Assembly: GCF_017348835.2 (NCBI RefSeq)
Contig: NZ_CP072315.1
Strand: one strand, 5' to 3'
Source of the DNA: Escherichia coli
Lineage (GTDB): Bacteria; Pseudomonadota; Gammaproteobacteria; Enterobacterales; Enterobacteriaceae
DNA: 64,000 bases
In this document: one piece after another, positions 35,403-52,899 of the stretch
Position numbering within the stretch: the first letter of the stretch is position 1
Layout of the letters: every line of letters begins with the position of its first letter
The notes under the pieces: generated by a model
Seen by the model: only the letters and a program-made list of their open reading frames with translations
What the model was told of the DNA's origin: nothing
Databases searched by the model: none
Translations under genes and position numbers: made by a program

Positions 35403-35440
35403 GGGGTCTGACGCTCAGTGGAACGAAAACTCACGTTAAG
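35403..35440 (+). repeat. Tn3 38-bp terminal inverted repeat
   Basis: GGGGTCTGACGCTCAGTGGAACGAAAACTCACGTTAAG. Confidence 0.9.
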
Positions 35441-36738
35441 CAACGTTTTCTGCCTCTGACGCCTCTTTTAATGGTCTCAGATGTCCTTTGGTCACCAGTT
35501 CTGCCAGCGTGAAGGAATAATGGCCGAGCATATTGATATGTCCGTGGCAAAGCGGGGAGAGGCGTGCGATATCTTCATCATTCAGTGTTTCACCCTGCGC
35601 CCGGAGATGATCCAGGGCTGCCTGCATATAAATAGTGTTCCATAACACGACGGCGTTAGTGACCAGCCCCAGTGTGCCCAGTTGATCTTCCTGACCGTCG
35701 GTATATCGTTTTCTTATCTCACCTTTTTGACCGTGACAGATGGCTCTGGCAACGGCATGGCGACTTTCTCCCCGATTAAGCTGGGTCAGAATGCGCCGGC
35801 GGTAATCTTCATCATCAATATAATTAAGCAGATACAGCGTTTTGTTGATGCGCCCCACTTCAATGATTGCCTGAGTCAGTCCGGAAGGACGTTCACTTTT
35901 CAGCAATGAACGGACCAGCACTGAAACCTGTACTTTGCCCAGCTTCAGGGAGCCAGCGGTCCGGATCATTTCGTCCCACTGAAGGACTATTTTTCGGGGA
36001 TCTGATTGCCCTCTGGCAATATCATTCAGCACGCCATAGTCGGCATCATGGTCCATTCGCCAGAAAACCGAAGCACCGGCATCAGCCAGGCGTGGAGAAA
36101 ACTGGTATCCCAGCAGCCAGAAAAGGCCAAAGACAAGTTCGCTGGCACCTGCTGTATCGGTCATAATTTCGGTTGGATTCAGCCCGGTCTCCTGTTCCAG
36201 AAGACCTTCCAGCACAAAGATAGAGTCCCTCAGCGTCCCCGGTATAACGATGCCATGAAAGCCGGAATACTGATCGGACACAAAGTTGTACCAGGTGATC
36301 CCTCTGTTATTACCAAAGTATTTGCGGTTCGGTCCGGCATTGATTGTTCTGACTGGCGTAACAAAGCGCATTCCATCTGCAGATGCCACTTCTCCTCCAC
36401 CCCATATCTGTGCCAGTGGCAGCGTTGCCTGAAAATCAACCAGTCTGGCATTAGCGCTGGTGATAGTTTCAGCCCGCAGATAGTTCGCTTTTGTCCAGTT
36501 CAGCCGGTGTCGGGTCAGTGCAGGAACATTTGATCTGATCAGTGGTTCCAGACCGATATTGCAGGCTTCAGCCATCAGCACGGCGCTGATGCTGACGGGC
36601 AGATCATCAACTCTGGCACTGGCTTCACTAGCATGGAAAAACTCATCAGCAAATCCGGTATGGGCGTTAATTTCGAGCAGCAACTCCGTTAAATCCACCG
36701 GAGGGAGTAGATCACTGATCATTTTGCTCAGTCGTTTC
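35436..36738 (-). pseudogene. tnpA: Tn3 transposase gene, 3' portion, truncated by IS26
   Basis: About 430 C-terminal residues of Tn3-type TnpA (…RLSKMISDLLPPVDLTELLLEINAHTGF… to …HLRPLKEASEAENVA); the track ORF's start codon lies inside IS26. Confidence 0.85.
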
Positions 36739-37557
36739 GGCACTGTTGCAAATAGTCGGTGGTGATAAACTTATCATCCCCTTTTGCTGATGGAGCTGCA
36801 CATGAACCCATTCAAAGGCCGGCATTTTCAGCGTGACATCATTCTGTGGGCCGTACGCTGGTACTGCAAATACGGCATCAGTTACCGTGAGCTGCAGGAG
36901 ATGCTGGCTGAACGCGGAGTGAATGTCGATCACTCCACGATTTACCGCTGGGTTCAGCGTTATGCGCCTGAAATGGAAAAACGGCTGCGCTGGTACTGGC
37001 GTAACCCTTCCGATCTTTGCCCGTGGCACATGGATGAAACCTACGTGAAGGTCAATGGCCGCTGGGCGTATCTGTACCGGGCCGTCGACAGCCGGGGCCG
37101 CACTGTCGATTTTTATCTCTCCTCCCGTCGTAACAGCAAAGCTGCATACCGGTTTCTGGGTAAAATCCTCAACAACGTGAAGAAGTGGCAGATCCCACGA
37201 TCCTCAACACGGATAAAGCGCCCGCCTATGGTCGCGCGCTTGCTCTGCTCAAACGCGAAGGCCGGTGCCCGTCTGACGTTGAACACCGACAGATTAAGTA
37301 CCGGAACAACGTGATTGAATGCGATCATGGCAAACTGAAACGGATAATCAACGCCACGCTGGGATTTAAATCCATGAAGACGGCTTACGCCACCATCAAA
37401 GGTATTGAGGTGATGCGTGCACTACGCAAAGGCCAGGCCTCAGCATTTTATTATGGTGATCCCCTGGGCGAAATGCGCCTGGTAAGCAGAGTTTTTGAAA
37501 TGTAAGGCCTTTGAATAAGACAAAAGGCTGCCTCATCGCTAACTTTGCAACAGTGCC
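36739..37557 (+). mobile_element. IS26 copy 1 (819 bp, transposase frameshifted)
   Basis: 14-bp ends GGCACTGTTGCAAA / TTTGCAACAGTGCC; 1 bp shorter than the other copies from a change near 37198 (CCCACGATCCTCAACACGG versus CCCACGATTCATCAACACGG in other copies); no 8-bp target duplication. Confidence 0.9.
36802..37505 (+). pseudogene. tnp26: IS26 transposase gene, frameshifted
   Basis: Reading frame splits into track ORFs 36784..37314 and 37185..37505; protein diverges after KKWQIPR. Confidence 0.85.
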
Positions 37558-37680
37558 GCCCCAGCAGCATCTCCAGCTGTGAACGCTGTTCGGCTGACGG
37601 TATCAGTGCCAGTTTGTTCCACAGGCGCAACGTCGCCTTTTCCCTTACCTCTGAAATCAACCGGGTCAGCGTAGTGGCTC
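37558..37680 (-). pseudogene. tnpA: Internal fragment of Tn3 transposase gene
   Basis: Encodes …ISEVREKATLRLWNKLALIPSAEQRSQLEMLLG, an internal TnpA segment not contiguous with the 3' fragment on the other side of IS26; right boundary approximate. Confidence 0.6.
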
Positions 37681-37707
37681 CGGGGAGAATAATAGTCTAT
37701 CCCGGCA

Positions 37708-38085
37708 TTGCCAGTCGGGGATATTAAAAAGAGTATAGGTTTTTATTGCGATAAACTAGGTTTCACTTTGGTTCACCATGAAGATGGATTCGCAGTTCTA
37801 ATGTGTAATGAGGTTCGGATTCATCTATGGGAGGCAAGTGATGAAGGCTGGCGCTCTCGTAGTAATGATTCACCGGTTTGTACAGGTGCGGAGTCGTTTA
37901 TTGCTGGTACTGCTAGTTGCCGCATTGAAGTAGAGGGAATTGATGAATTATATCAACATATTAAGCCTTTGGGCATTTTGCACCCCAATACATCATTAAA
38001 AGATCAGTGGTGGGATGAACGAGACTTTGCAGTAATTGATCCCGACAACAATTTGATTAGCTTTTTTCAACAAATAAAAAGCTAA
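37708..38085 (+). CDS. bleO: Bleomycin-binding protein, Gram-positive (pUB110-type) BleO-like
   Basis: 125 aa from TTG at 37708; sequence PVGDIKKSIGFYCDKLGFTLVHHEDGFAVLMCNEVRIHLWEASDEGW… matches the pUB110 bleomycin-resistance protein as I recall it; an in-frame stop upstream suggests the native N-terminus is missing. Confidence 0.7.
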   Translation: MPVGDIKKSIGFYCDKLGFTLVHHEDGFAVLMCNEVRIHLWEASDEGWRSRSNDSPVCTGAESFIAGTASCRIEVEGIDELYQHIKPLGILHPNTSLKDQWWDERDFAVIDPDNNLISFFQQIKS

Positions 38086-38404
38086 AATCTATTATTAATC
38101 TGTTCAGCAATCGGGCGCGATTGCTGAATAAAAGATACGAGAGACCTCTCTTGTATCTTTTTTATTTTGAGTGGTTTTGTCCGTTACACTAGAAAACCGA
38201 AAGACAATAAAAATTTTATTCTTGCTGAGTCTGGCTTTCGGTAAGCTAGACAAAACGGACAAAATAAAAATCTAAATATGCTTGAACAACTTGTAACTTA
38301 AATTCATAACTGTATTTTGCCATAAAAAATGACCTCCCATAAGTTAGATTTTTGGTCTAACTTATGGGGGTCAGTTCATTCTACACTTGGGCTGCATGTT
38401 TTGA

Positions 38405-38797
38405 TTAATTATCTAATATCTCCGGATCTCCTGTAAAGGAATATAAAACTGCCTGCATGTTTTTCAAATAAAATACGGTGAATTTCCCATCATCAGCGCT
38501 ATACCAATCTCTCAAATGCGGATTTGCTTCAAGCATTGCTTCCCTTGCTTCCACGGTATCATCAATTACGGCTTCGCCGGTGAGCCGAATCCATTTTCCT
38601 TTTGCCATACCTGAGACTTCCACCTTTGAATTTGCCAATAACTGCTGATAAACTTTTTTCTGATTGGTTGTACCAAGATAGACCTTGCCATTCCTCTCCA
38701 TGGCTGCATTAAACGGTCTGACCCTTGGCTGGTCTCCTTCAACGGTTGCAAAATAAAAAGTTTTTGCTTCATTTAAAAAATCAACAACTTGACTCAT
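38405..38797 (-). CDS. Pyridoxamine 5'-phosphate oxidase-like (flavin-binding split-barrel) protein
   Basis: 130-aa ORF in an AT-rich, Gram-positive-like segment; fold assignment tentative. Confidence 0.5.
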   Translation of the reverse strand: MSQVVDFLNEAKTFYFATVEGDQPRVRPFNAAMERNGKVYLGTTNQKKVYQQLLANSKVEVSGMAKGKWIRLTGEAVIDDTVEAREAMLEANPHLRDWYSADDGKFTVFYLKNMQAVLYSFTGDPEILDN

Positions 38798-39079
38798 CCT
38801 TTTTTACCTCCATAAATAAATTTTTCTTTACTTTTCTTTGACCTAAATTCCACGTGCATTTTTTATTAGCTTAAAAGAACACTATTTCACGAAGAATTTA
38901 AACTGATACTCCCACATTGTAACATTATTTACCACCACCTTTCAATCTTTTTCAATAAATTATTGATTGCAACTTTTGAGTAAAGATACTTATTAAACCC
39001 TGCAAGTTATCCACAGAGCAACACTCGATTTTCAAGATGATATCTTTATTACACCAGACATTTTTCATACACTTCCTTG

Positions 39080-39899
39080 GGCACTGTTGCAAAGTTAGCG
39101 ATGAGGCAGCCTTTTGTCTTATTCAAAGGCCTTACATTTCAAAAACTCTGCTTACCAGGCGCATTTCGCCCAGGGGATCACCATAATAAAATGCTGAGGC
39201 CTGGCCTTTGCGTAGTGCACGCATCACCTCAATACCTTTGATGGTGGCGTAAGCCGTCTTCATGGATTTAAATCCCAGCGTGGCGTTGATTATCCGTTTC
39301 AGTTTGCCATGATCGCATTCAATCACGTTGTTCCGGTACTTAATCTGTCGGTGTTCAACGTCAGACGGGCACCGGCCTTCGCGTTTGAGCAGAGCAAGCG
39401 CGCGACCATAGGCGGGCGCTTTATCCGTGTTGATGAATCGTGGGATCTGCCACTTCTTCACGTTGTTGAGGATTTTACCCAGAAACCGGTATGCAGCTTT
39501 GCTGTTACGACGGGAGGAGAGATAAAAATCGACAGTGCGGCCCCGGCTGTCGACGGCCCGGTACAGATACGCCCAGCGGCCATTGACCTTCACGTAGGTT
39601 TCATCCATGTGCCACGGGCAAAGATCGGAAGGGTTACGCCAGTACCAGCGCAGCCGTTTTTCCATTTCAGGCGCATAACGCTGAACCCAGCGGTAAATCG
39701 TGGAGTGATCGACATTCACTCCGCGTTCAGCCAGCATCTCCTGCAGCTCACGGTAACTGATGCCGTATTTGCAGTACCAGCGTACGGCCCACAGAATGAT
39801 GTCACGCTGAAAATGCCGGCCTTTGAATGGGTTCATGTGCAGCTCCATCAGCAAAAGGGGATGATAAGTTTATCACCACCGACTATTTGCAACAGTGCC
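39080..39899 (-). mobile_element. IS26 copy 2 (820 bp)
   Basis: Both 14-bp ends present; abuts a 5'-truncated IS26 in the opposite orientation at 39900. Confidence 0.9.
39132..39836 (-). CDS. tnp26: IS26 transposase Tnp26 (Asn at position 184)
   Basis: 234 aa from [12 protein letters not shown]; contains KRIINATLG. Confidence 0.9.
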   Translation of the reverse strand: MNPFKGRHFQRDIILWAVRWYCKYGISYRELQEMLAERGVNVDHSTIYRWVQRYAPEMEKRLRWYWRNPSDLCPWHMDETYVKVNGRWAYLYRAVDSRGRTVDFYLSSRRNSKAAYRFLGKILNNVKKWQIPRFINTDKAPAYGRALALLKREGRCPSDVEHRQIKYRNNVIECDHGKLKRIINATLGFKSMKTAYATIKGIEVMRALRKGQASAFYYGDPLGEMRLVSRVFEM

Positions 39900-40207
39900 C
39901 AAACGCGAAGGCCGGTGCCCGTCTGACGTTGAACACCGACAGATTAAGTACCGGAACAACGTGATTGAATGCGATCATGGCAAACTGAAACGGATAATCG
40001 GCGCCACGCTGGGATTTAAATCCATGAAGACGGCTTACGCCACCATCAAAGGTATTGAGGTGATGCGTGCACTACGCAAAGGCCAGGCCTCAGCATTTTA
40101 TTATGGTGATCCCCTGGGCGAAATGCGCCTGGTAAGCAGAGTTTTTGAAATGTAAGGCCTTTGAATAAGACAAAAGGCTGCCTCATCGCTAACTTTGCAA
40201 CAGTGCC
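39900..40207 (+). mobile_element. Partial IS26 (3' terminal 308 bp)
   Basis: Encodes the C-terminal about 80 aa of Tnp26 with Gly at position 184 (KRIIGATLG); ends with TTTGCAACAGTGCC. Confidence 0.85.
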
Positions 40208-40416
40208 GGCTGAAGGCCGAGCAAGCCTGACAGGCCCGAAAAGCCCGGCACGGGCGTCGGCGGCGATGACGGCGGCGGCATTATCCAGGGTTGATGATGG
40301 AAGTGGAGGATATCGACAACCTCTCGCGCAACCAAGACATCGCGGTCGGACTGCAAGTGATCTTGAAGCCACGGGCCCGTCCCACCCCGACATGGACCTC
40401 GATGCCCGAACGGACG

Positions 40417-40917
40417 TTAGATTTCGAGTTCTAGGCGTTCTGCGATGAAGGTTGGATCCCAGCCGGGATTGAAAGTGTCGACGTGGGTGAATCCGAGCCG
40501 CTCGTATAGGCCACGCAGGTTCGGGTGGCAGTCGAGCCGCAGCTTGGCGCACCCCTGCGTTCGCGCGGCATGGCGGCAAGCCTCGATCAGCGCGGAGCTG
40601 ACACCCCGGCCCGCATGTGTCCGTCGCACCGCGAGCTTGTGCAGATATGCGGCCTCCCCCTTGAGGGCGTCGGGCCAGAACTCGGGATCCTCGGCCGACA
40701 AGGTGCAACAGCCGACGATGCCGTCGCTGCAACTCGCGACTAGGAGCTCGGATCTCAGGACGAAGGTCTCCGCGAATGTCCGGTCGATCCGCGCGACGTC
40801 CCAGGCGGGCGTTCCCTTGGCGGACATCCACGCCGCAGCGTCGTGCATCAGCCGCACAACCTCGTCGATATCACCCGAGCAGGCGACCCGAACGTTCGGA
40901 GGCTCCTCGCTGTCCAT
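40417..40917 (-). CDS. orf5: GNAT acetyltransferase (orf5 of the 3'-conserved segment)
   Basis: 166-aa ORF MDSEEPPNVRVACSGDIDEVVRLMHDAAAWM…. Confidence 0.85.
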   Translation of the reverse strand: MDSEEPPNVRVACSGDIDEVVRLMHDAAAWMSAKGTPAWDVARIDRTFAETFVLRSELLVASCSDGIVGCCTLSAEDPEFWPDALKGEAAYLHKLAVRRTHAGRGVSSALIEACRHAARTQGCAKLRLDCHPNLRGLYERLGFTHVDTFNPGWDPTFIAERLELEI

Positions 40918-41044
40918 TCGCTCCCCTGGCGCGGTATGAACCGCCGCCTCATAGTGCAGTTTGATCCTGACGAGCCCAGCATGTCTGCGCCCACCTTCGC
41001 GGAACCTGACCAGGGTCCGCTAGCGGGCGGCCGGAAGGTGAATG

Positions 41045-41884
41045 CTAGGCATGATCTAACCCTCGGTCTCTGGCGTCGCGACTGCGAAATTTCGCGAGGG
41101 TTTCCGAGAAGGTGATTGCGCTTCGCAGATCTCCAGGCGCGTGGGTGCGGACGTAGTCAGCGCCATTGCCGATCGCGTGAAGTTCCGCCGCAAGGCTCGC
41201 TGGACCCAGATCCTTTACAGGAAGGCCAACGGTGGCGCCCAAGAAGGATTTCCGCGACACCGAGACCAATAGCGGAAGCCCCAACGCCGACTTCAGCTTT
41301 TGAAGGTTCGACAGCACGTGCAGCGATGTTTCCGGTGCGGGGCTCAAGAAAAATCCCATCCCCGGATCGAGGATGAGCCGGTCGGCAGCGACCCCGCTCC
41401 GTCGCAAGGCGGAAACCCGCGCCTCGAAGAACCGCACAATCTCGTCGAGCGCGTCTTCGGGTCGAAGGTGACCGGTGCGGGTGGCGATGCCATCCCGCTG
41501 CGCTGAGTGCATAACCACCAGCCTGCAGTCCGCCTCAGCAATATCGGGATAGAGCGCAGGGTCAGGAAATCCTTGGATATCGTTCAGGTAGCCCACGCCG
41601 CGCTTGAGCGCATAGCGCTGGGTTTCCGGTTGGAAGCTGTCGATTGAAACACGGTGCATCTGATCGGACAGGGCGTCTAAGAGCGGCGCAATACGTCTGA
41701 TCTCATCGGCCGGCGATACAGGCCTCGCGTCCGGATGGCTGGCGGCCGGTCCGACATCCACGACGTCTGATCCGACTCGCAGCATTTCGATCGCCGCGGT
41801 GACAGCGCCGGCGGGGTCTAGCCGCCGGCTCTCATCGAAGAAGGAGTCCTCGGTGAGATTCAGAATGCCGAACACCGTCACCAT
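41045..41884 (-). CDS. sul1: Sulfonamide-resistant dihydropteroate synthase Sul1
   Basis: 279 aa from [23 protein letters not shown]. Confidence 0.95.
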
Positions 41885-42225
41885 GGCGTCGGCCTCCGCA
41901 GCGACTTCCACGATGGGGATCGGGCGAGCAAAAAGGCAGCAATTATGAGCCCCATACCTACAAAGCCCCACGCATCAAGCTTTTGCCCATGAAGCAACCA
42001 GGCAATGGCTGTAATTATGACGACGCCGAGTCCCGACCAGACTGCATAAGCAACACCGACAGGGATGGATTTCAGAACCAGAGAAAGAAAATAAAATGCG
42101 ATGCCATAACCGATTATGACAACGGCGGAAGGGGCAAGCTTAGTAAAGCCCTCGCTAGATTTTAATGCGGATGTTGCGATTACTTCGCCAACTATTGCGA
42201 TAACAAGAAAAAGCCAGCCTTTCAT
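41878..42225 (-). CDS. qacEdelta1: Truncated SMR efflux protein QacEdelta1
   Basis: 115 aa [27 protein letters not shown]…. Confidence 0.95.
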
Positions 42226-42335
42226 GATATATCTCCCAATTTGTGTAGGGCTTATTATGCACGCTTAAAAATAATAAAAGCAGACTTGACCTGATAGTTT
42301 GGCTGTGAGCAATTATGTGCTTAGTGCATCTAACG
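42223..42335 (-). repeat. About 110-bp direct repeat, copy A (start of 3'-conserved segment upstream of qacEdelta1)
   Basis: CCCAATTTGTGTAGGGCTTATTATGCACGCTTAAAAATAATAAAAGCAGACTTGACCTGATAGTTTGGCTGTGAGCAATTATGTGCTTAGTGCATCTAACG. Confidence 0.9.
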
Positions 42336-42341
42336 CCTGAA

Positions 42342-43187
42342 TTAAGCTGCGCCGCGAAGCGGCGTCGGCTTGAATGAACTGTTAGACATCATTGGCGTGG
42401 AGCCGAGCAGACTGGCGGCTTCGTGCTTCACAAAGTAAATGAACGCAGTCAACTGATCAGCGCGTGAGGCCAAGCAATCCATCCCTTGTCCAAGGTAAGC
42501 CTGCTGGGCTTCAAGCAGCACGGGCTGATGTTGGACGGGCAGGCGTTCCATTACCCAGTTGGCAGCTACATCCTTCGGCGCGATCTTGCCGGTTGCTGCG
42601 CTGTACCAAATGCGAGACAAAGTAAGCACTACATTCCGCTCGTCGCCTGCCCAATCCGGTTGTGAGTTCCATAGTTTCAAGGTGTCGGCCAGTGCTTTGA
42701 ATAGATCGCTTTCCGGGACTGAGTTGAAGAAATCTTCCGCGGCCGAACCTGCCAAGGCAAGGCTGTGTTGCCTTGCTTTAGTTAGCAGAATAGCCAGATC
42801 AACATCGGTTGTCGCGGGCTCGAAGATGCCCGCAAGAATGTCCTTGCGCTGCCACTCCCCGAATTGCAGTTCCCGTCTGGCTGGATAACGCCAAGGAACA
42901 ACATCGCCGTACACGACGATGGTAACTTCCAAGGCACGGAGAGCTTCACTTTGGCCGGGAGAAGCGGAAACTTCCAGGAAATCTACGAACAGAGCCTGCC
43001 GCACAGTCTCATCGAGCTGTGCAGTCACAGTAACCAGCAAATCAATATCACTGCATGGCTTCAGGCCACCGTCGAGTGCAGAGCCGTACAAATGCACGGC
43101 CAGCAACGTCGATCCCAGATGATGCTCGATGACGTTGAGTGCCTGTGATAGCTGTACCGAAATCTCGGCGGGCACTGCGTTGCTCAT
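42342..43187 (-). CDS. aadA16: Aminoglycoside (3'')(9) adenylyltransferase, aadA16-type
   Basis: 281 aa from MSNAVPAEISVQ; C-terminus …MSNSSFKPTPLRGAA reads into the attC region; allele assignment is from the array context and my recollection of the gene length. Confidence 0.8.
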   Translation of the reverse strand: MSNAVPAEISVQLSQALNVIEHHLGSTLLAVHLYGSALDGGLKPCSDIDLLVTVTAQLDETVRQALFVDFLEVSASPGQSEALRALEVTIVVYGDVVPWRYPARRELQFGEWQRKDILAGIFEPATTDVDLAILLTKARQHSLALAGSAAEDFFNSVPESDLFKALADTLKLWNSQPDWAGDERNVVLTLSRIWYSAATGKIAPKDVAANWVMERLPVQHQPVLLEAQQAYLGQGMDCLASRADQLTAFIYFVKHEAASLLGSTPMMSNSSFKPTPLRGAA

Positions 43188-43299
43188 GATGTCTAACTCC
43201 CAATTTGTGTAGGGCTTATTATGCACGCTTAAAAATAATAAAAGCAGACTTGACCTGATAGTTTGGCTGTGAGCAATTATGTGCTTAGTGCATCTAACG
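43186..43299 (-). repeat. About 110-bp direct repeat, copy B (5' region of the aadA16 cassette)
   Basis: Near-identical to copy A; supplies the MSNA start of aadA16. Confidence 0.9.
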
Positions 43300-43367
43300 C
43301 CGCTAAGCAGCGGCACATTTTGCGTTTTGAGCGCAGCGAAGCAAAATGTGTCCGATGGCTTGGATGG

Positions 43368-43841
43368 TTAACCCCTTTGCCAGATTTGATAGCGATAATT
43401 TATATTTGAATGAAATTCCTGCTCGAACACCACATTGAACTCTTTGGGGATTTCCGGAAAGAAAACATTGCCCTCTGGCTCGGAATCTATTGTCGAGATA
43501 TGTAGCGTGTCGGCATGGGCGATCAGACTCTTGTAGATCTCTCCACCACCAGAAACAACAACATGGTTCGTAAGAGTCTTTAGCTCCCTCATTGCTGCTT
43601 CTATAGATGGAAACACAACCACATCATCGTTAGTAGCTACCGATCCTGAGCGGCTGACAACTGCATACTTTCTATTTGGGAGAGCCCCCATTGCCTCAAA
43701 TGTTTTACGGCCGACTAAGAGCCATTGATTGTAAGTTATTGCTTTAAAAAGCAGCTGCTCACCTTTAGCGTTCCACGGGATATCCGAGCCGCAGCCAATA
43801 ACCCCATTTCTTGCTTTTGCAGCCATTAGTGATATTTTCAC
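43368..43841 (-). CDS. dfrA27: Trimethoprim-resistant dihydrofolate reductase, dfrA27-type
   Basis: 157 aa from a GTG start (V)[22 protein letters not shown]…; 474 bp. Confidence 0.8.
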
Positions 43842-43973
43842 GATACTCCTTTGGGTTAACGCCGCCATAAACGGCGACAGGGTGGCGCGCCTATTGCGCA
43901 TAAAATGGCGAAGCCATGCGCAACAGGCGCGGAATCTCTGGCGTCCGGTTTGATGGCTTTGTTATGCAAAGGA

Positions 43974-44426
43974 CTAGTCTTCAATGACGTGTAAACCACG
44001 GCGCTTTAAGTCCTCCAACGAATCCAACATTCCCCTTATTAATTCAACAGGATGCCCCTCCCAGTCTTCAACAACGCCAACAATTCTCAAGGGTTCGCAG
44101 GTTCTATAGGACTGTGTTGGATTACCGGGAAATCTTTTGTTCGTAAGATTCGGATCGTCTTCGAACGGTCCTGTTGGCTCAACTATGTATATGTAGCCGC
44201 GACCCTCGAGGCCAGACAGTGACATAGCAAGTTCAGCTCCCCAAACTGCTGGCTCCATCAAGGCTGAAAAGTAGATGTGCTTAAGAATACGACCGTCCTC
44301 GAAATGAGAGATGAACCCTGTGGTTAGCAAGTCACCAATCGCCAAATTGGCTTTGGTTCCATGATAGAACGGTCCTTGCACCTGCTTGTAATTATCATGA
44401 GAGATGGGAATCCAATCTTTTACCAT
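43974..44426 (-). CDS. arr-3: Rifampin ADP-ribosyltransferase Arr-3
   Basis: 150 aa MVKDWIPISHDNYKQVQGPFYHGTKANL…. Confidence 0.9.
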   Translation of the reverse strand: MVKDWIPISHDNYKQVQGPFYHGTKANLAIGDLLTTGFISHFEDGRILKHIYFSALMEPAVWGAELAMSLSGLEGRGYIYIVEPTGPFEDDPNLTNKRFPGNPTQSYRTCEPLRIVGVVEDWEGHPVELIRGMLDSLEDLKRRGLHVIED

Positions 44427-44522
44427 TTTAAGACCCTTAATTGTTGGGATTTGGCTGCATAACGTTTGACATGAGGGGCGGCCAAGGGCGCCAGCCCTTG
44501 GACGTCCCCCTCGATGGAAGGG

Positions 44523-45122
44523 TTAGGCATCACTGCGTGTTCGCTCGAATGCCTGGCGTGTTTGAACCATGTACACGGCTGGACCATATGGGGTGGTTAC
44601 GGTACCTTGCCTCTCAAACCCCGCTTTCTCGTAGCATCGGATCGCTCGCAAGTTGCTCGGCGACGGGTCCGTTTGGATCTTGGTGACCTCGGGATCATTG
44701 AACAGCAACTCAACCAGAGCTCGAACCAGCTTGGTTCCCAAGCCTTTGCCCAGTTGTGATGCATTCGCCAGTAACTGGTCTATTCCGCGTACTCCTGGAT
44801 CGGTTTCTTCTTCCCACCGTCCGTCCCCGCTTCCAAGAGCAACGTACGACTGGGCATACCCAATCGGCTCTCCATTCAGCATTGCAATGTATGGAGTGAC
44901 GGACTCTTGCGCTAAAACGCTTGGCAAGTACTGTTCCTGTACGTCAGCAAGTGTCGGGCGTGCTTCTTCTCCGCCCCACCACTCGACGATATGAGATCGA
45001 TTTAGCCACTCATAGAGCATCGCAAGGTCATGCTCAGTCATGAGGCGCAGTGTGACGGAATCGTTGCTGTTGGTCACGATGCTGTACTTTGTGATGCCTA
45101 ACTTTGTTTTTGCGTTGCTCAT
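44523..45122 (-). CDS. aac(6')-Ib-cr: Aminoglycoside/fluoroquinolone acetyltransferase AAC(6')-Ib-cr
   Basis: 199 aa from MSNAKTKLG; carries both -cr signature substitutions (Trp102Arg in GDGRWEEE and Asp179Tyr in TTPYGPAVY, numbering per the usual convention). Confidence 0.9.
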
Positions 45123-45233
45123 GATGTCTAACTCCCAATTTGTGTAGGGCTTATTATGCACGCTTAAAAATAATAAAAGCAGACTTGACCTGATAGTTTG
45201 GCTGTGAGCAATTATGTGCTTAGTGCATCTAAC
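45119..45233 (-). repeat. About 110-bp direct repeat, copy C (5' region of the aac(6')-Ib-cr cassette, next to attI1)
   Basis: Near-identical to copies A and B. Confidence 0.9.
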
Positions 45234-45295
45234 TTTGTTTTAGGGCGACTGCCCTGCTGCGTAACATCGTTGCTGCTCCATAACATCAAACATCG
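45230..45295 (-). other. attI1 recombination site
   Basis: 5'-conserved-segment end sequence …GATGTTATGGAGCAGCAACGATGTTACGCAGCAGGGCAGTCGCCCTAAAACAAAGTT read on the minus strand. Confidence 0.8.
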
Positions 45296-45368
45296 ACCCA
45301 CGGCGTAACGCGCTTGCTGCTTGGATGCCCGAGGCATAGACTGTACAAAAAAACAGTCATAACAAGCC

Positions 45369-46382
45369 ATGAAAACCGCCACTGCGCCGTTACCACCGCT
45401 GCGTTCGGTCAAGGTTCTGGACCAGTTGCGTGAGCGCATACGCTACTTGCATTACAGCTTACGAACCGAACAGGCTTATGTCCACTGGGTTCGTGCCTTC
45501 ATCCGTTTCCACGGTGTGCGTCACCCGGCAACCTTGGGCAGCAGCGAAGTCGAGGCATTTCTGTCCTGGCTGGCGAACGAGCGCAAGGTTTCGGTCTCCA
45601 CGCATCGTCAGGCATTGGCGGCCTTGCTGTTCTTCTACGGCAAGGTGCTGTGCACGGATCTGCCCTGGCTTCAGGAGATCGGAAGACCTCGGCCGTCGCG
45701 GCGCTTGCCGGTGGTGCTGACCCCGGATGAAGTGGTTCGCATCCTCGGTTTTCTGGAAGGCGAGCATCGTTTGTTCGCCCAGCTTCTGTATGGAACGGGC
45801 ATGCGGATCAGTGAGGGTTTGCAACTGCGGGTCAAGGATCTGGATTTCGATCACGGCACGATCATCGTGCGGGAGGGCAAGGGCTCCAAGGATCGGGCCT
45901 TGATGTTACCCGAGAGCTTGGCACCCAGCCTGCGCGAGCAGCTGTCGCGTGCACGGGCATGGTGGCTGAAGGACCAGGCCGAGGGCCGCAGCGGCGTTGC
46001 GCTTCCCGACGCCCTTGAGCGGAAGTATCCGCGCGCCGGGCATTCCTGGCCGTGGTTCTGGGTTTTTGCGCAGCACACGCATTCGACCGATCCACGGAGC
46101 GGTGTCGTGCGTCGCCATCACATGTATGACCAGACCTTTCAGCGCGCCTTCAAACGTGCCGTAGAACAAGCAGGCATCACGAAGCCCGCCACACCGCACA
46201 CCCTCCGCCACTCGTTTGCGACGGCCTTGCTCCGCAGCGGTTACGACATTCGAACCGTGCAGGATCTGCTCGGCCATTCCGACGTCTCTACGACGATGAT
46301 TTACACGCATGTGCTGAAAGTTGGCGGTGCCGGAGTGCGCTCACCGCTTGATGCGCTGCCGCCCCTCACTAGTGAGAGGTAG
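45369..46382 (+). CDS. intI1: Class 1 integron integrase IntI1
   Basis: 337 aa [40 protein letters not shown]…. Confidence 0.95.
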
Positions 46383-46559
46383 GGCAGCGCAAGTCAATCC
46401 TGGCGGATTCACTACCCCTGCGCGAAGGCCATCGGTGCCGCATCGAACGGCCGGTTGCGGAAAGTCCTCCCTGCGTCCGCTGATGGCCGGCAGCAGCCCG
46501 TCGTTGCCTGATGGATCCAACCCCTCCGCTGCTATAGTGCAGTCGGCTTCTGACGTTCA

Positions 46560-46584
46560 GTGCAGCCGTCTTCTGAAAACGACA
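46560..46584 (+). repeat. Class 1 integron 25-bp inverted repeat IRi
   Basis: GTGCAGCCGTCTTCTGAAAACGACA (reverse complement of TGTCGTTTTCAGAAGACGGCTGCAC). Confidence 0.9.
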
Positions 46585-46800
46585 AACAGCCAGAAAGGCT
46601 GTTACAGGCGATTTGATCTGCAACCTATTGGTTAAATTAATGTATCAAAAACGATGGTTTTTGTGACAGTCTTGAAAAGTCCTGACTTCTCCCGAAAAAT
46701 GACTCCCCTCATGTAACAAAACTCGTTACTGTATCAACATAACAATAACCCCATAACTAATTAGCGAGAAAAGAATGAAAATCGGCTATGCACGTAAATC

Positions 46801-47620
46801 GGCACTGTTGCAAATAGTCGGTGGTGATAAACTTATCATCCCCTTTTGCTGATGGAGCTGCACATGAACCCATTCAAAGGCCGGCATTTTCAGCGTGACA
46901 TCATTCTGTGGGCCGTACGCTGGTACTGCAAATACGGCATCAGTTACCGTGAGCTGCAGGAGATGCTGGCTGAACGCGGAGTGAATGTCGATCACTCCAC
47001 GATTTACCGCTGGGTTCAGCGTTATGCGCCTGAAATGGAAAAACGGCTGCGCTGGTACTGGCGTAACCCTTCCGATCTTTGCCCGTGGCACATGGATGAA
47101 ACCTACGTGAAGGTCAATGGCCGCTGGGCGTATCTGTACCGGGCCGTCGACAGCCGGGGCCGCACTGTCGATTTTTATCTCTCCTCCCGTCGTAACAGCA
47201 AAGCTGCATACCGGTTTCTGGGTAAAATCCTCAACAACGTGAAGAAGTGGCAGATCCCACGATTCATCAACACGGATAAAGCGCCCGCCTATGGTCGCGC
47301 GCTTGCTCTGCTCAAACGCGAAGGCCGGTGCCCGTCTGACGTTGAACACCGACAGATTAAGTACCGGAACAACGTGATTGAATGCGATCATGGCAAACTG
47401 AAACGGATAATCAACGCCACGCTGGGATTTAAATCCATGAAGACGGCTTACGCCACCATCAAAGGTATTGAGGTGATGCGTGCACTACGCAAAGGCCAGG
47501 CCTCAGCATTTTATTATGGTGATCCCCTGGGCGAAATGCGCCTGGTAAGCAGAGTTTTTGAAATGTAAGGCCTTTGAATAAGACAAAAGGCTGCCTCATC
47601 GCTAACTTTGCAACAGTGCC
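46801..47620 (+). mobile_element. IS26 copy 3 (820 bp)
   Basis: Both 14-bp ends; no target duplication. Confidence 0.95.
46864..47568 (+). CDS. tnp26: IS26 transposase Tnp26 (Asn at position 184)
   Basis: 234 aa; KRIINATLG. Confidence 0.9.
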   Translation: MNPFKGRHFQRDIILWAVRWYCKYGISYRELQEMLAERGVNVDHSTIYRWVQRYAPEMEKRLRWYWRNPSDLCPWHMDETYVKVNGRWAYLYRAVDSRGRTVDFYLSSRRNSKAAYRFLGKILNNVKKWQIPRFINTDKAPAYGRALALLKREGRCPSDVEHRQIKYRNNVIECDHGKLKRIINATLGFKSMKTAYATIKGIEVMRALRKGQASAFYYGDPLGEMRLVSRVFEM

Positions 47621-48213
47621 TTTGCACACATATGGAATCTGTAAATCATTTTGGACAAACCCGAAAAGAAATCCGTGAGTATGTAGATCTTAATAAGATT
47701 ACTGACCAGGTTAGTATCCCTGAAGATGGTGAAGTCGTTAATCTTTAATTATACATCCCCACAACTTTAATCAGGCAGTTACTCATTATGGTTTTACTGG
47801 TGACTGCCGGCCCTCTTAGCATTCGAAATTTTTTATGTCACCCGATTTAGTTCCGCGCACTTTTTGAGATTTCCGGGGTTTCAGCCATCAGCCGGAAATT
47901 ACAGAGGGCAATGGCTGAAGAAGGTTTTTCCCCGCGATAGCGCAAGTTTCCACAAAAGGGCATCGAATTTTTTGAATGCCCTTTTCTTACCCCATCCCCT
48001 CATAACTTTATGTTTTTATTAACTTCGCGTTTTCGACGCCAGCGTTGGCCAGCTGCTGCCGGCGACGTGGCCACACAACCGATTATTCAAGTTCGCTGAA
48101 TGAGTTTTTACGGGCTGTATGCAACACAAATGCTACGATAATGCCCCCGGACAATACCGGCTCCCAATAATCCGGGGTGGGTTTGTTCTGCCGGTTTAGT
48201 CCGGGGAGCAAGG

Positions 48214-48501
48214 TCACTTTGAGGGGAGATCTTCAGCAAGTAATTTTCCATGCGCGATAAGCCACCTGCGGCGTTTTGCCATCCACTGCTGAAATTCAGA
48301 GGTGCTCTCAACCTTCAGCACATCCTTCCGCTTCCAGGCCATTATGGGGCCAGCTTTTTGTGGTTGGTCGAGAAAGTCAGATATGGCTTTATCAGTCCAG
48401 TACCGCGCTTTCAATCCACTTTTACTTATCCAGTTATCGTGCCATTCAGCGCTTGCTTTAGCGCGTGAATCGGCGGCGTTGTAATAAAGCCTTACCGTCA
48501 T
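48214..48501 (-). CDS. Hypothetical protein
   Basis: 95-aa ORF downstream of the helicase fragment. Confidence 0.35.
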   Translation of the reverse strand: MTVRLYYNAADSRAKASAEWHDNWISKSGLKARYWTDKAISDFLDQPQKAGPIMAWKRKDVLKVESTSEFQQWMAKRRRWLIAHGKLLAEDLPSK

Positions 48502-48510
48502 TACTCGCTC

Positions 48511-48965
48511 CTATAATCTCAAGGCTCTGTCATCGTTATTTTTTTCATGGCCTTTATCTTTAGGCCGGGCATTACCTTTATCCTGCGTCGGCTCGGCTTT
48601 GTCTCGGCCTTTTTCGCGGGTATCATGCTGCTGCTCTTTGGCATAGCGTTTGAGTTGTTCCAGCTCAAGCGCGGCGGTTTTGAACCCTTCCCGGCTGGCC
48701 GCTTTATCCAGCTTCTTCTCATCGTCGGTGTAAATGACGGCTTCGTGTTTAGCGCGGGTGACAGCCACGTAATAAACATCTTTGGCCGTTGTGAGTGATC
48801 GGGTATCCATATTGATAAAAACCTTGTCGCAGGTCAGCCCCTGAGCACTATGAACGGTCGAAGCGTAAGCCAGCCCTAAGTACATAGGTTTGTTGGCATC
48901 AATTTTTACCAGCCGCCCTTTCTCGTTCTCCAGCAGTACCTCACCACTCTGGACGCTTTTTACCT
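48511..48965 (-). pseudogene. 3' fragment of a RecD/TraI-type helicase (relaxase-like) gene, interrupted by Tn1721
   Basis: C-terminal helicase motifs (YASTVHSAQGLTCDKVFI, YVAVTRAKHEAVIYTDD); the reading frame continues up to the inverted repeat at 48972 with no start. Confidence 0.6.
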
Positions 48966-48971
48966 TAAAAC

Positions 48972-49009
48972 GGGGGAACCGCAGAATTCGGAAAAAATCG
49001 TACGCTAAG
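48972..49009 (+). repeat. Tn1721-type 38-bp terminal inverted repeat (IRL-like)
   Basis: GGGGGAACCGCAGAATTCGGAAAAAATCGTACGCTAAG. Confidence 0.85.
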
Positions 49010-49160
49010 CTAACGGTGTTCTCGTGACAGCTCTTTGACTAGGCTTTCTAAGGCCATTCTGATAGCCCTGACTTCCTGAAAAGCCATGGCTAAAATTTGT
49101 GCGGCTAAAAGGGATAACCGATGGTAAAGTAAGTTATCCCTGTCGAGATACTGAAAAGCG

Positions 49161-50738
49161 TTATCCTCGTTTTTCCCAAAACTGTTTTGCCAGTTCGCTC
49201 AGAGCGCTAGTTAACTGAGCGACAGATTTCGCACTTTGCAAATTATTCTGCCCGGTCTGTACATTGGTATCAGCAGCATCGCGTATATTGATAATACTGC
49301 GGTTTATGTCTTCACTTACTGCTCCCTGCTGCTCGACCGCAGTCGCTATTTGCGCGTTCATGTCGGTAATTTCGTTAACGCGTTGGCCAATTCCATCAAG
49401 AGCTGTAGCTGCTTCCTCTGCGTGAGCTACACTCGTGTGCGCTTGCCGACTACTTTGCTCCATGACTGTAACAGCGGATTGCGCTCGCTCTTGTAGAGCG
49501 CTGATCATGCTTTGAATATCCGTTGTCGATTGCTGTGTGCGAGCAGCAAGACTGCGAACCTCATCGGCGACAACAGCAAAACCACGCCCCTGCTCACCAG
49601 CACGCGCGGCCTCAATTGCTGCGTTGAGTGCCAACAAATTCGTTTGCTCGGCGATCCCTCGTATAACGTCAAGAACTTTTGATATCTCGTTACTTTGACC
49701 TTCAAGCTCATGAATAACCTGAGTGGCTTGCCTAATTTCACCTTCAAGGGCAGTGATTGACTGGCTTGTGTGGGCTACCAGACGCTGGCCAGATGCCGTC
49801 TCAGTGTCTGCTCTTCCGGCCGCATCTGCAGCATGCTGTGCATTGCTCGCAACCTCTTGAATGCTTGCCACCATTTGGTTTACTGCCGTTGCTATTTGAT
49901 CTGTCTCTGCCTGCTGCTCAACTGTAAGTACATTGCTTGACTCAATATCCTTTAGTAGGCCTCGGGTGTGTTCGCTAAGCCGATTTGATGCATCACCTAT
50001 GCGACCTACTATGGCGCCTGTTTCAGCTTGCATCATTCGTAAAGCAAACTCTATTTGGCCAAACTCATCGGTGCGCCCAGTGTAGAGGGATTGACTTAAT
50101 GGGTTATTGGAAATATTCCTGGCTCTTTCAACCAGTCTTCCAAGAGGAGAGAGAATAGCCAAAACACTAACAGAGCTTAAGCTTCCTGACATTAAAGTGG
50201 CTAACAATAAGCTGCTTATTGATGTATCAGTAAGCATGCCGGCAGCCATTGCGCTTGATATAATACTACCCCATATGAGCAAGAGTATTTTCACGGAAAA
50301 GCTAGCAGCCAATTTCGGCCTCGCGGCCTTCCCGCTTCTCAATTGAGCATATAATTTTTCCGCAGCCAAAACCTGCTCAGGTTCAGGCTTGGTCCTTACA
50401 GACTGGTATTCAACAATCGAACCATTCTTAGCTATTGGCGTTACATAAGCACTTACCCAATAGTGGTCGCCATTTTTACAGCGATTTTTTACTAGCCCCA
50501 TCCATGAGCGGCCAGATTTTAATGTACTCCACATATGCTCAAATGCAGCAGGCGGCATATCTGGGTGTCTTACGATGTTGTGAGGCTGGCCTAATAGTTC
50601 TTCCTCAGTGAAACCACTGATTTTAATGAAGTCAGGATTAACGTACGTGATATGGCTTTGAGGGGAGGTAGTCGAAAGAATATTGGCATCTTTTGGGAGT
50701 TCTAAGTTTCGACCCGTCACTGGTAAATTCTGGCGCAT
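49161..50738 (-). CDS. Methyl-accepting chemotaxis-like protein (Tn1721 orfI-type) with N-terminal PAS-like region
   Basis: 525 aa from [20 protein letters not shown] signalling-domain character; the 730-aa track ORF is a fusion with antisense IS26 sequence. Confidence 0.8.
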
Positions 50739-50762
50739 AAGAACCTCAAGGGTTGGCTGTTT

Positions 50763-51582
50763 GGCACTGTTGCAAATAGTCGGTGGTGATAAACTTATCA
50801 TCCCCTTTTGCTGATGGAGCTGCACATGAACCCATTCAAAGGCCGGCATTTTCAGCGTGACATCATTCTGTGGGCCGTACGCTGGTACTGCAAATACGGC
50901 ATCAGTTACCGTGAGCTGCAGGAGATGCTGGCTGAACGCGGAGTGAATGTCGATCACTCCACGATTTACCGCTGGGTTCAGCGTTATGCGCCTGAAATGG
51001 AAAAACGGCTGCGCTGGTACTGGCGTAACCCTTCCGATCTTTGCCCGTGGCACATGGATGAAACCTACGTGAAGGTCAATGGCCGCTGGGCGTATCTGTA
51101 CCGGGCCGTCGACAGCCGGGGCCGCACTGTCGATTTTTATCTCTCCTCCCGTCGTAACAGCAAAGCTGCATACCGGTTTCTGGGTAAAATCCTCAACAAC
51201 GTGAAGAAGTGGCAGATCCCGCGATTCATCAACACGGATAAAGCGCCCGCCTATGGTCGCGCGCTTGCTCTGCTCAAACGCGAAGGCCGGTGCCCGTCTG
51301 ACGTTGAACACCGACAGATTAAGTACCGGAACAACGTGATTGAATGCGATCATGGCAAACTGAAACGGATAATCGGCGCCACGCTGGGATTTAAATCCAT
51401 GAAGACGGCTTACGCCACCATCAAAGGTATTGAGGTGATGCGTGCACTACGCAAAGGCCAGGCCTCAGCATTTTATTATGGTGATCCCCTGGGCGAAATG
51501 CGCCTGGTAAGCAGAGTTTTTGAAATGTAAGGCCTTTGAATAAGACAAAAGGCTGCCTCATCGCTAACTTTGCAACAGTGCC
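50763..51582 (+). mobile_element. IS26 copy 4 (820 bp)
   Basis: Both 14-bp ends; lies 24 bp upstream of the mcp start codon. Confidence 0.95.
50826..51530 (+). CDS. tnp26: IS26 transposase Tnp26 (Gly at position 184)
   Basis: 234 aa; KRIIGATLG. Confidence 0.9.
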
Positions 51583-51778
51583 GCGCGACGAGCAGCAGCA
51601 CCAGGAGCAGAAGCACGTCGAGAAAAAGCAACAGCAGATCGAGCAGCGCCCACGGCGGGCCGCTCGCATCGGATAAGTCGAAAAATCCGGCTAAAGTGGC
51701 CGAGCTGCACATCAGGCCGCGCGGTTTTCCTCCCTGATCGCCGGCGCGGTTTCTTCCTCCCTGAACCGCATGCAGACT

Positions 51779-51812
51779 TGCCGCCTCGGACACCCCGAGG
51801 CGGTTTTTTTTC
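51779..51812 (+). terminator. Rho-independent terminator
   Basis: Hairpin CCGCCTCGG-ACACC-CCGAGGCGG followed by eight T residues. Confidence 0.7.
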
Positions 51813-51823
51813 GCCTCGCTCGA

Positions 51824-52037
51824 GCATCGCCGCATCCGACGATGCCGAGACGACCAGGCCGCGCACGTCGAGCTGCAGCATCGCCATTGCCGACGATGGC
51901 ACCAGGTCGCCGGCGGTGGCCACCGACCTCGAGCTCGCATCGCCACATCCGACGATGCGCGCCGGCGTCGACCATCGCCAGGTCTGACGATGGCGGCCGC
52001 CCTGCCCTGGATCTCGCATCGCCATTTCTGGCGATGA
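51824..52037 (+). repeat. Five iterated about 22-bp partly palindromic sites (GCATCG-N10-CGATGC type)
   Basis: Copies at 51824, 51877, 51937, 51972 and 52016, upstream of the serine recombinase gene. Confidence 0.7.
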
Positions 52038-52161
52038 GATCCACGGAGCGGCCATTTAGACCCGCCAATAACGACCCGGCCAAGATAAATCGCATGACGG
52101 CCTTTTTGGCCGGGGGTAGCATGACCGGACACTTTGCGTATGCCCAAAGGAGCCCGCAAGT

Positions 52162-52899
52162 ATGCGCAGGACGAAGCCAGTAGCCGCGCCGATGGTGGCG
52201 CGGGTCTATCTGCGCGTCAGCACCGACGCGCAGGACTTGGAACGCCAAGAGGCGATCACTACGGCCGCGAAGGCCGCCGGCTACTACGTCGCCGGCATCT
52301 ACCGTGAGAAGGCATCCGGCGCACGCGCCGACCGGCCTGAGCTGCTGCGCATGATCGGCGACCTACAGCCCGGCGAGGTGGTCATTGCCGAGAAGATCGA
52401 CCGCATCAGCCGCCTACCTTTGCCCGAGGCCGAGCGCCTGGTGGCCTCGATACAGGCCAAAGGCGCAAGCCTGGCCGTCCCTGGCGTGGTCGATCTATCC
52501 GACCTGGCGGCCGAGGCCCAGGGCGTCGCCAAGATCGTGCTGGAAGCCGTGCAGATCATGCTTTTTCGCCTGGCCTTGCAGATGGCCCGCGACGACTACG
52601 AGGACAGGCGCGAACGCCAGCGCCAAGGCATTGAGTTGGCCCGCCAGGCCGGGCGGTACAAGGGCCGCCGTGCTGATCCGAAGCGCCGCGCCCAAGTTGT
52701 CGCGCTGCGCAAGTCCGGCTACAGCATCAACAAGACCGCCGAGCTGGCCGGGTACAGTGCGGCCCAGGTGAAACGGATATGGGCCGAGGTCAGCCAGGCC
52801 GAAGCGAAGCAGCACGGCGCGTTCGTGGAGGACGCATTGACGGAAGCCGATGCCCTGGCCGCTGTCGGCCAGGATGAGCGCCAGGAGGAAAGGGCATGA
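52162..52899 (+). CDS. Serine recombinase (resolvase/invertase family)
   Basis: 245-aa ORF with N-terminal catalytic-domain character (YLRVSTDAQDLERQ) and a C-terminal HTH; alternative start near 52192. Confidence 0.7.
   Translation: MRRTKPVAAPMVARVYLRVSTDAQDLERQEAITTAAKAAGYYVAGIYREKASGARADRPELLRMIGDLQPGEVVIAEKIDRISRLPLPEAERLVASIQAKGASLAVPGVVDLSDLAAEAQGVAKIVLEAVQIMLFRLALQMARDDYEDRRERQRQGIELARQAGRYKGRRADPKRRAQVVALRKSGYSINKTAELAGYSAAQVKRIWAEVSQAEAKQHGAFVEDALTEADALAAVGQDERQEERA

Follow-up and report, generated by a model that had tools for sequence, protein, structure and literature searches.

The IS26 variant IS26-v1, with the Tnp26 change G184N, reportedly goes back to Pong, Harmer, Ataide & Hall (2019), and its nomenclature to Harmer, Pong & Hall (2021). 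By definition, IS26-v1 departs from IS26 at three nucleotides, and two of these changes produce G184N (PMC9412624); because G184N has been reported in both v1 and v3 (PMC12540391), v1 cannot be recognized from residue 184 alone. In passages that cite Pong et al. 2019, Asn184 of IS26-v1 is reported to raise cointegrate formation (PMC8477213, PMC11137137, PMC9019673). The catalytic residues of Tnp26 are D78, D138, and E173, and residues 1-56, the N-terminal helix-turn-helix domain, are enough for binding IS26 ends (PMC8477213). A close described system is the multiresistance region of the IncHI2 plasmid pOYZ4 (MRCP), whose rearrangements were attributed to IS26-v1 (Front Microbiol 2022, PMC9019673). 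This related plasmid has 10 mixed IS26 and IS26-v1 copies, none of them with target duplications (PMC9019673), as is typical of regions with multiple IS26 copies (PMC9019673, PMC4196232). Adjacent deletions and the formation of translocatable units by IS26 are also documented (Harmer, Moran & Hall 2014, PMC4196232; Harmer & Hall 2022, PMC9602291): one IS end keeps its flank while the other meets a new nearby target, the intervening DNA is lost, presumably as a circle with one IS copy, and no duplication is left in the retained molecule.

We analyzed a 64,000-nucleotide stretch of Escherichia coli contig NZ_CP072315.1, referred to as the window. Searches with the 14-bp inverted repeats GGCACTGTTGCAAA and with peptides located four full IS26 copies, c1 to c4, and one 308-bp 3' fragment (Table 1). 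All four copies have both perfect inverted repeats; the fragment retains only the right one and has no promoter, start codon, or left inverted repeat. Copies c2, c3, and c4 are 820 bp long, each with a single 705-bp tnp26, whose product is a DDE transposase of 234 aa in which D78, D138, and E173 occupy the published positions. Neither the 819-bp c1, with its 170-aa frameshifted product, nor the fragment has such a gene. Very probably this is an IncHI2 plasmid's multiresistance region, bounded by IS26, carrying the two dominant natural IS26 alleles, and put together in the usual IS26 manner. It shares with pOYZ4/MRCP the IncHI2 family, multiple IS26 and IS26-v1 copies, and one frameshifted copy, and the 8-bp CGTCGCGC that adjoins an IS26 in pOYZ4 (PMC9019673) corresponds, on the opposite strand, to GCGCGACG, the right flank of c4. 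The two regions differ in module content, in copy number (10 against four plus the fragment within the window), and in the frameshift itself, which is a single T deletion at +376 in the published plasmid, whereas the c1 lesion lies at nt 463-466.

Table 1. IS26 copies, allele-defining codons, and intervening segments in the window
Feature	Position	Strand	Description	8-bp flanks (left / right)
c1	36739-37557	+	819 bp, IS26-v1 derivative, frameshifted tnp26; 14-bp inverted repeats intact	GTCGTTTC / GCCCCAGC
AAC "codon 184" of c1	37350-37352	+	out of frame	
bleO segment	37558-39079		1,522 bp, between c1 and c2	
bleO	37708-38085	+		
nimC-like gene	38405-38797	-	pyridoxamine 5'-phosphate oxidase	
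c2	39080-39899	-	820 bp, intact IS26-v1	left end adjoins nt 513 of another IS26 / CAAGGAAG (IS orientation; conserved in relatives)
Asn184 codon of c2	39285-39287	-		
IS26 3' fragment	39900-40207	+	308 bp, reference IS26 nt 513-820, Gly184	
Gly184 codon of fragment	40000-40002	+		
Class 1 integron segment	40208-46800	-	GNAT/orf5, sul1, qacEdelta1, aadA16, dfrA27, arr-3, aac(6')-Ib-cr, intI1	
c3	46801-47620	+	820 bp, intact IS26-v1, sequence identical to c2	CGTAAATC / TTTGCACA
Asn184 codon of c3	47413-47415	+		
c3-c4 segment	47621-50762		relaxase/helicase-like gene fragments and chemotaxis gene	
Chemotaxis gene	49161-50738	-	PAS-domain methyl-accepting chemotaxis protein	
c4	50763-51582	+	820 bp, intact IS26, Gly184, nt 459 = G	GGCTGTTT / GCGCGACG
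Gly184 codon of c4	51375-51377	+		

As the IS26 reference we used c4 in place of X00011; its sequence matches exactly that of copies whose annotated product is WP_001067855.1, and its allele is the majority one. Against c4, copies c2 and c3 each show three nucleotide changes and no others: G459A, which is silent (Pro132), and G613A and G614A, which together give Gly184Asn. With c4 as reference and the v1 positions taken from secondary sources, both thus match the nucleotide definition of IS26-v1. The initial annotation had read KRIINATLG in the first three copies and KRIIGATLG in the fourth and the partial copy. Both strings are indeed encoded (at 37338-37364, 39273-39299 on the minus strand, and 47401-47427, and at 39988-40014 and 51363-51389, respectively), and the residue that differs is position 184 of the 234-aa Tnp26, but in c1 the string is out of frame. 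Its identification of Asn184 with the hyperactive IS26-v1 variant is borne out by the three nucleotide changes in c2 and c3, with the gain in activity coming from the literature and G184N being shared with v3; the SNP count, three each for c2 and c3, shows that the copies are not identical at the nucleotide level. A literature search on IS26-v3 returned no match; an allele with 459G and AA at 613-614, found in relatives of this plasmid, may be v3.

In public sequences these two alleles predominate, and the 820-bp element is otherwise the same in both; chance is not at issue. Of the 5,826 complete E. coli replicons in RefSeq that have IS26, at least 1,662 possess both alleles, a lower bound derived from the numbers of records with the exact Asn184 segment (2,231), the exact Gly184 segment (5,257), or either (5,826); about three quarters of the Asn184-bearing replicons also have Gly184. 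Co-residence of both alleles is the norm, not a signal, and the mixture, already described for IncHI2 plasmids, does not set this one apart. That the alleles differ at just three positions might suggest that Asn184 arose by in-place mutation of the plasmid's own Gly184 copy, with no separate acquisition; there is no direct evidence for such an origin. The three changes, including an adjacent double substitution, constitute a globally distributed allele, which those 2,231 E. coli records share; PMC11137137 counts 1,385 proteins with it, and its first sighting was in a 1990 isolate. That these three changes should have arisen together more than once, independently, is very unlikely, and this worldwide distribution effectively refutes in-place mutation.

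Besides the three v1 changes, c1 carries a lesion at nt 463-466 (window about 37201-37204): compared with c2 and c3, one base has been lost and one next to it substituted. The reading frame is lost after residue 133, and the predicted 170-aa product consists of 133 native and 37 novel residues, without D138, E173, or residue 184; intact Asn184 transposase genes are therefore only two, those of c2 and c3. No slippery motif for programmed frameshifting is evident around CCCACGATCCTCAAC in c1, where a +1 shift would be needed. A sequencing error was ruled out by the identical allele at the same site in independent assemblies, namely, p2016062-242 (L002), pAMPD03 (L003), and a Photobacterium plasmid (L007), and by the exact 70-bp allele in 149 PLSDB records from Escherichia, Salmonella, and Photobacterium. 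The c1 product retains the N-terminal helix-turn-helix domain with two of the three catalytic residues gone, and by analogy with truncated transposase inhibitors it might conceivably damp IS26 activity in trans on v1-loaded plasmids, a role that we regard as highly doubtful. Were it so, c1 may be a conserved, widely travelling allele, more than debris. A simpler explanation for the distribution of the allele is that it travels along with the bleO module, whose left junction is fixed.

The segments between the copies differ in how they are bounded. Copies c1 and c2 are inverted around the bleO segment, with the tnp26-distal (right) end of each facing inward; as the bounding copies are inverted and one is dead, this segment does not have the layout of a translocatable unit. 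The bleO/nimC-like module is found again in many plasmids: the order is frameshifted v1, bleO, v1, oqxAB, v1 in pAMPD03 and frameshifted v1, bleO, v1 in the Photobacterium plasmid. The class 1 integron segment, whose genes were named from the annotation of a 99.99%-identical stretch in NZ_CP090540.1 and from window open reading frames, has the translocatable-unit layout only in part, with the fragment that lacks a left end on one side and c3 on the other. The left junction of c3, on the intI1 side, is common to the IS26-v1 right of oqxAB in pAMPD03. Only the c3-c4 segment lies between copies that are both intact and in direct orientation, and its layout is potentially that of a translocatable unit or pseudo-compound transposon.

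As had been noted from the sequence at the outset, no copy has an 8-bp target duplication: the two flanks of each copy mismatch at 5 or 6 of the 8 positions. The accompanying proposal, that the order of events be reconstructed from reciprocal flank pairs, did not succeed, as the best pair among all IS ends in the window, compared directly and as reverse complements, has 3 mismatches. With no reciprocal flank pairs surviving, the assembly order cannot be reconstructed from the window. Separately, 6-bp and 10-bp extensions of the inverted-repeat arms proved to be imperfect chance matches. The assignment of the copies to IS26 stands despite the missing duplications, because their loss or absence is typical of multi-IS26 regions.

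The nearest relative is p2016062-242 (NZ_CP090540.1), a nearly identical IncHI2A plasmid of Salmonella enterica from Henan, China. Identity is 100% over window positions 1-25000 and 51451-64000, is reported as 100.0% over 30000-40208, where nt 459 of c2 is the only difference, and is 99.99% over 39896-55500; within 39900-51450, nt 459 of c3 is the sole difference. At both sites p2016062-242 has G and the window A, whereas the two plasmids agree in the frameshifted c1 allele and in every IS26 flank. The only structural difference is an extra 8,838 bp in p2016062-242 between c2 and a Gly184 IS26, containing oqxAB, rrf2, a damaged IS26, tnpR, blaTEM-1, and IS26 nt 1-512. The Gly184 IS26 that matches the window fragment is complete in p2016062-242 (L002 14338-15157); in the window, the left end of c2, a v1 copy, is joined directly to IS26 nt 513, with sequence identical to p2016062-242 on both sides. 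This structure is observed directly, and adjacent deletion is the mechanism that we infer for it, from comparison with one relative that is perhaps not the true parent. The event would share the features listed above for known adjacent deletions, and differs in having its target within a second IS26 (at nt 512/513) and in being reconstructed, not observed. A c2-anchored deletion would make the 308-bp fragment the remnant of a full IS26 and would explain why the window is without oqxAB and blaTEM-1. The junction itself has no collinear match in PLSDB or the E. coli RefSeq complete genomes, so that it could still be an assembly join.

That the only SNPs between the window and p2016062-242 fall at nt 459 of two IS26 copies raises the concern that polishing an 820-bp repeat with non-uniquely placed reads spread or swapped SNPs, in the window or in its relatives. 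Position 459 lies some 360 bp inside the element, counted from the nearer IS end, too deep for short reads to be anchored, and all five IS26 copies of pSH16G4909 are pure reference, as if the repeats had been filled by consensus. However, the frameshift confined to c1 was kept 4-7 nt from position 459 and was reproduced at the same site by independent laboratories; given its recurrence in 149 PLSDB records, copy-level resolution in the window looks good. The difference at 613-614, about 207 bp from the IS end, is anchorable by paired reads, and both alleles are abundant in nature. We consider an artefact of this kind unlikely.

The reading that we favor is assembly by IS26 itself. Segments with an attached IS26 would have joined beside existing IS26 copies by copy-in or targeted conservative cointegration, after which homologous recombination among the copies, together with inversions and adjacent deletions, would have erased the 8-bp target duplications. 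The v1 copies go with the bleO/oqxAB cluster, and the Gly184 copies delimit the 3' end of the integron and the side with the chemotaxis gene and ISCR2; this partition suggests that at least two IS26 lineages were brought together. The most recent visible event would be the adjacent deletion that brought the c2 left end onto nt 513 of the neighboring IS26, with the loss of 8,838 bp. The initial annotation also suggested that co-residence may increase rearrangement rates; in its favor there is one anecdotal point, that the only rearrangement specific to the window is anchored on a v1 copy. The initial annotation had held that the two alleles imply independent acquisitions; these are plausible, with the v1 copies tied to the bleO/oqxAB module, but they are not implied, since the allele varies at the same sites.

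Among sister plasmids, the same insertion sites, with identical 8-bp flanks, carry the reference allele, the two-nucleotide Asn184 allele, or full v1. At the c1 site, the window, p2016062-242, and pAMPD03 all have the frameshifted v1; p2010112-144 has the 459G + AA allele there, and pSH16G4909 the reference one. The same three allele states occur among relatives at the c2 site. Alleles that vary at identical sites have been either exchanged in place or mis-assigned in assembly, and this instability weakens any copy-by-copy history. It is thus possible, though we hold it only tentatively, that the allele pattern is no acquisition record and that recombination or gene conversion moves the 459 and 613-614 variants between co-resident copies. 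The 459G + AA allele is to be expected when a crossover joins IS26 to IS26-v1 at a point between nt 459 and nt 613, and the c2 and c3 sites have 459A in the window and 459G in p2016062-242 amid surrounding tens of kilobases of 100% identity. Yet linkage in the window is perfect, 459A with AA and 459G with GG, with no chimeric copy; the v1 copies stay with the bleO/oqxAB module in hosts as distant as Photobacterium; and the allele differences among relatives could themselves be assembly artefacts. For annotation of the copies in the window, we suggest the labels IS26, IS26-v1, IS26-v1 (frameshifted pseudogene), and truncated IS26 (nt 513-820). On its own, the allele of a copy is unfit as a marker of separate acquisitions, given that one and the same site can differ in allele between sister plasmids.

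IS26 copies in the window were located by their terminal repeat GGCACTGTTGCAAA and by two peptide searches (KRIINATLG and KRIIGATLG); four full copies, c1 to c4, and one 3' fragment are listed in the table. Coordinates within the element match the Harmer and Hall system, with the BsiWI and SwaI sites aligning where PMC4196232 puts them. We used c4 as a stand-in IS26 reference on two grounds: its sequence is that of copies whose annotated product is WP_001067855.1, and it carries the majority allele. The copies are not identical at the nucleotide level. In the alignment, c2 and c3 share one sequence, which departs from c4 at three positions and no others: G459A, G613A, and G614A. Each of these three copies translates to a 234-amino-acid product with D78, D138, and E173 at the published catalytic positions (PMC8477213); at residue 184, c2 and c3 have Asn where c4 has Gly, and the substitution at nucleotide (nt) 459 is silent, leaving Pro132 in place (CCG to CCA). 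The Gly184 codon of the fragment lies at 40000-40002. The mixture of two Tnp26 alleles described in the initial annotation is real, as both alignment and translation confirm.

IS26 copies and neighboring modules in window order, with further loci of the frameshifted c1 allele
Order	Feature	Coordinates	Strand	Remarks
1	Tn3-family tnpA fragments	34686-35360; 35436-36738	minus	two C-terminal gene fragments directly left of c1
2	c1	36739-37557	plus	full copy; terminal repeat and peptide search
3	bleO and nimC-like gene
4	c2	39080-39899	minus	full copy, inverted; terminal repeat and peptide search
5	IS26 remnant (fragment)	39900-40207	plus	IS26 nt 513-820
6	orf5/GNAT, sul1, qacEdelta1, aadA16, dfrA27, arr-3, aac(6')-Ib-cr, intI1
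7	c3	46801-47620	plus	full copy; terminal repeat and peptide search
8	relaxase fragments and PAS-domain chemotaxis gene
9	c4	50763-51582	plus	full copy; terminal repeat and peptide search
10	resolvase gene, ISVsa3, floR, tet(A), strAB, sul2
	c1 allele, Photobacterium plasmid locus (L007)	3075-3893
	c1 allele, locus L008	3077-3894

Asn184 had also been equated with the variant IS26-v1. IS26-v1 and IS26 are three nucleotides apart, and two of these differences produce the catalytic-domain substitution G184N (PMC9412624), which enhances cointegration (PMC8477213, PMC9019673, PMC11137137). The substitution has been reported in v1 and v3 alike (PMC12540391); therefore, residue 184 by itself does not identify v1. 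By the definition given in secondary sources, c2 and c3 match v1 in their three-nucleotide pattern, and for these two copies the equation appears right; c1 is a pseudogene.

The c1 copy is 819 bp long and carries, beside a v1-type 459A, a 1-bp deletion and an adjoining substitution at IS nt 463-466 (about 37201-37204 in the window). The frame shifts after residue 133, and the predicted product of 170 amino acids, the last 37 of them foreign, is without D138, E173, and position 184. The KRIINATLG string for which c1 was counted as an Asn184 copy is present but out of frame with the gene start. A sequencing error is ruled out, because p2016062-242 (Salmonella, Henan), pAMPD03 (giant-panda Escherichia coli, Chengdu), and a Photobacterium damselae plasmid all have the identical allele at this site, between identical 8-bp flanks, and because 149 PLSDB records match exactly over 70 bp spanning the lesion. 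No gene is annotated at the lesion in any of these records (0/149). The allele is widely spread, the 149 plasmids coming from Escherichia, Salmonella, E. fergusonii, and Photobacterium, and bleO usually adjoins it. The small IncP-type plasmid pD72-IncP has a dead v1 copy with the same left junction but with blaTEM-238 at the right. The left end of c1 cuts the second Tn3-family fragment of the window, and this junction accompanies the dead copy in other plasmids.

Since a frameshifted IS26 alone gave no detectable cointegrates (PMC4196232), the window would hold two working Asn184 genes and a single working Gly184 gene, its other two elements being the dead v1 copy and the remnant of Gly184 type. 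Targeted conservative cointegration drops about 30-fold when one of the two partners is frameshifted (PMC4196232). Only one reading is even mildly novel, namely the speculation that the widespread dead copy encodes a truncated, end-binding Tnp26 inhibitor; we regard it as very improbable, and the spread of the allele is more simply explained by hitch-hiking with the bleO module.

The window belongs to an IncHI2 plasmid whose backbone is the usual one, ter operon and hipA included, and by sequence comparison this plasmid is essentially p2016062-242 (NZ_CP090540.1). Identity is 100% over 1-25000 and 51451-64000, 99.99% over 39896-55500, and a reported 100.0% over 30000-40208, where nt 459 of c2 is the sole difference. 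The only single-nucleotide differences in the compared stretches are at 39441 (c2 nt 459) and 47259 (c3 nt 459), both A in the window and G in p2016062-242. The latter thus bears an Asn184 allele combining 459G with AA at nt 613-614, which may be an IS26 x IS26-v1 recombinant (perhaps IS26-v3) or a polishing artifact. Elsewhere in the window, a 307-bp exact direct repeat (53213-53519 and 57497-57803) comprises the start of ISVsa3 (ISCR2) and a remnant past floR and a lysR fragment, the usual layout of the ISCR2-floR module. A mechanically called 730-amino-acid ORF (49161-51353, minus), running from the chemotaxis gene into antisense c4, was rejected as an ORF-calling artifact; the annotated gene spans 49161-50738.

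The initial annotation took co-residence of the alleles to imply independent acquisitions, which is plausible but overstated. In pAMPD03 the order is dead v1, bleO, v1, oqxAB, v1, and its third v1 copy has the left junction CGTAAATC in common with c3. The dead-v1, bleO, v1 unit is present in Photobacterium too, and the Gly184 copies of the window bound modules other than bleO/oqxAB. The v1 copies thus seem to belong together, which is evidence in favor of independent acquisitions. Against a strict reading stands the finding that one and the same insertion site can differ in allele between plasmids: the c1 site is occupied by the frameshifted v1 in three plasmids, by the 459G and AA allele in p2010112-144, and in pSH16G4909 by the reference allele, and the c2 site mirrors these three states. 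Such variation among sister plasmids, together with the confinement of point differences from p2016062-242 to nt 459 of c2 and c3, makes recombination between co-resident copies, shifting variants around, a possibility to be taken seriously, if tentatively. The variation would also follow if assemblies mis-assign variants among IS26 copies, which we consider unlikely. Either way, the allele at a copy is an unreliable record of that copy's origin.

As initially noted, and as is typical, no IS26 copy in the window has an 8-bp target duplication, and no reciprocal pairs, direct or inverted, survive among the nine flanks; therefore, the order of assembly is not readable from the window. Reverse-complemented, the right flank of c4 (51583-51590), GCGCGACG, reads CGTCGCGC, a sequence known from pOYZ4 (IncHI2), where it was reported to lie downstream of an IS26 copy and served as evidence of IS26-mediated inversion; the partner sequence lies beside no IS26 end within the window.

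Relatives of the plasmid tell more about past events. After c2, p2016062-242 has oqxAB, rrf2, an internally deleted IS26, tnpR, blaTEM-1, a 63-bp IS26 scrap, and a complete Gly184 IS26, whereas the left end of c2 in the window directly abuts nt 513 of that last element (39899/39900). The 8,838 bp absent from the window (NZ_CP090540.1 106011-114848) include oqxAB, rrf2, the internally deleted IS26, tnpR, blaTEM-1, and IS26 nt 1-512, and the sequence is identical on both sides. Searches of PLSDB and of the E. coli RefSeq complete genomes did not recover this junction of an IS26-v1 left end with IS26 nt 513. In structure the loss corresponds to an IS26 adjacent deletion, a mechanism we infer from the junction, in which one IS end would keep its flank, the other would gain a new one, and the lost DNA would presumably exit as a circle that includes one IS copy; translocatable units are described as forming by this route (PMC9602291, PMC4196232). 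The element acting in this one event would be a v1 copy, which fits raised rearrangement rates as an anecdote.

We surveyed E. coli RefSeq complete replicons for exact matches to 70-bp probes centered on codon 184. The segment occurs in 5,826 replicons, with at least one exact Asn184 copy in 2,231 and at least one exact Gly184 copy in 5,257. By inclusion-exclusion, at least 1,662 carry both, a lower bound of 28.5% of the replicons with IS26 and about 74% of those with Asn184. Published work is in line with this: a related IncHI2 plasmid resembles the window in its mixed IS26/IS26-v1 copies (ten there), its lack of duplications, and its one frameshifted copy (PMC9019673). The mixture is not unusual, and co-residence of IS26 and IS26-v1 is already known and common.
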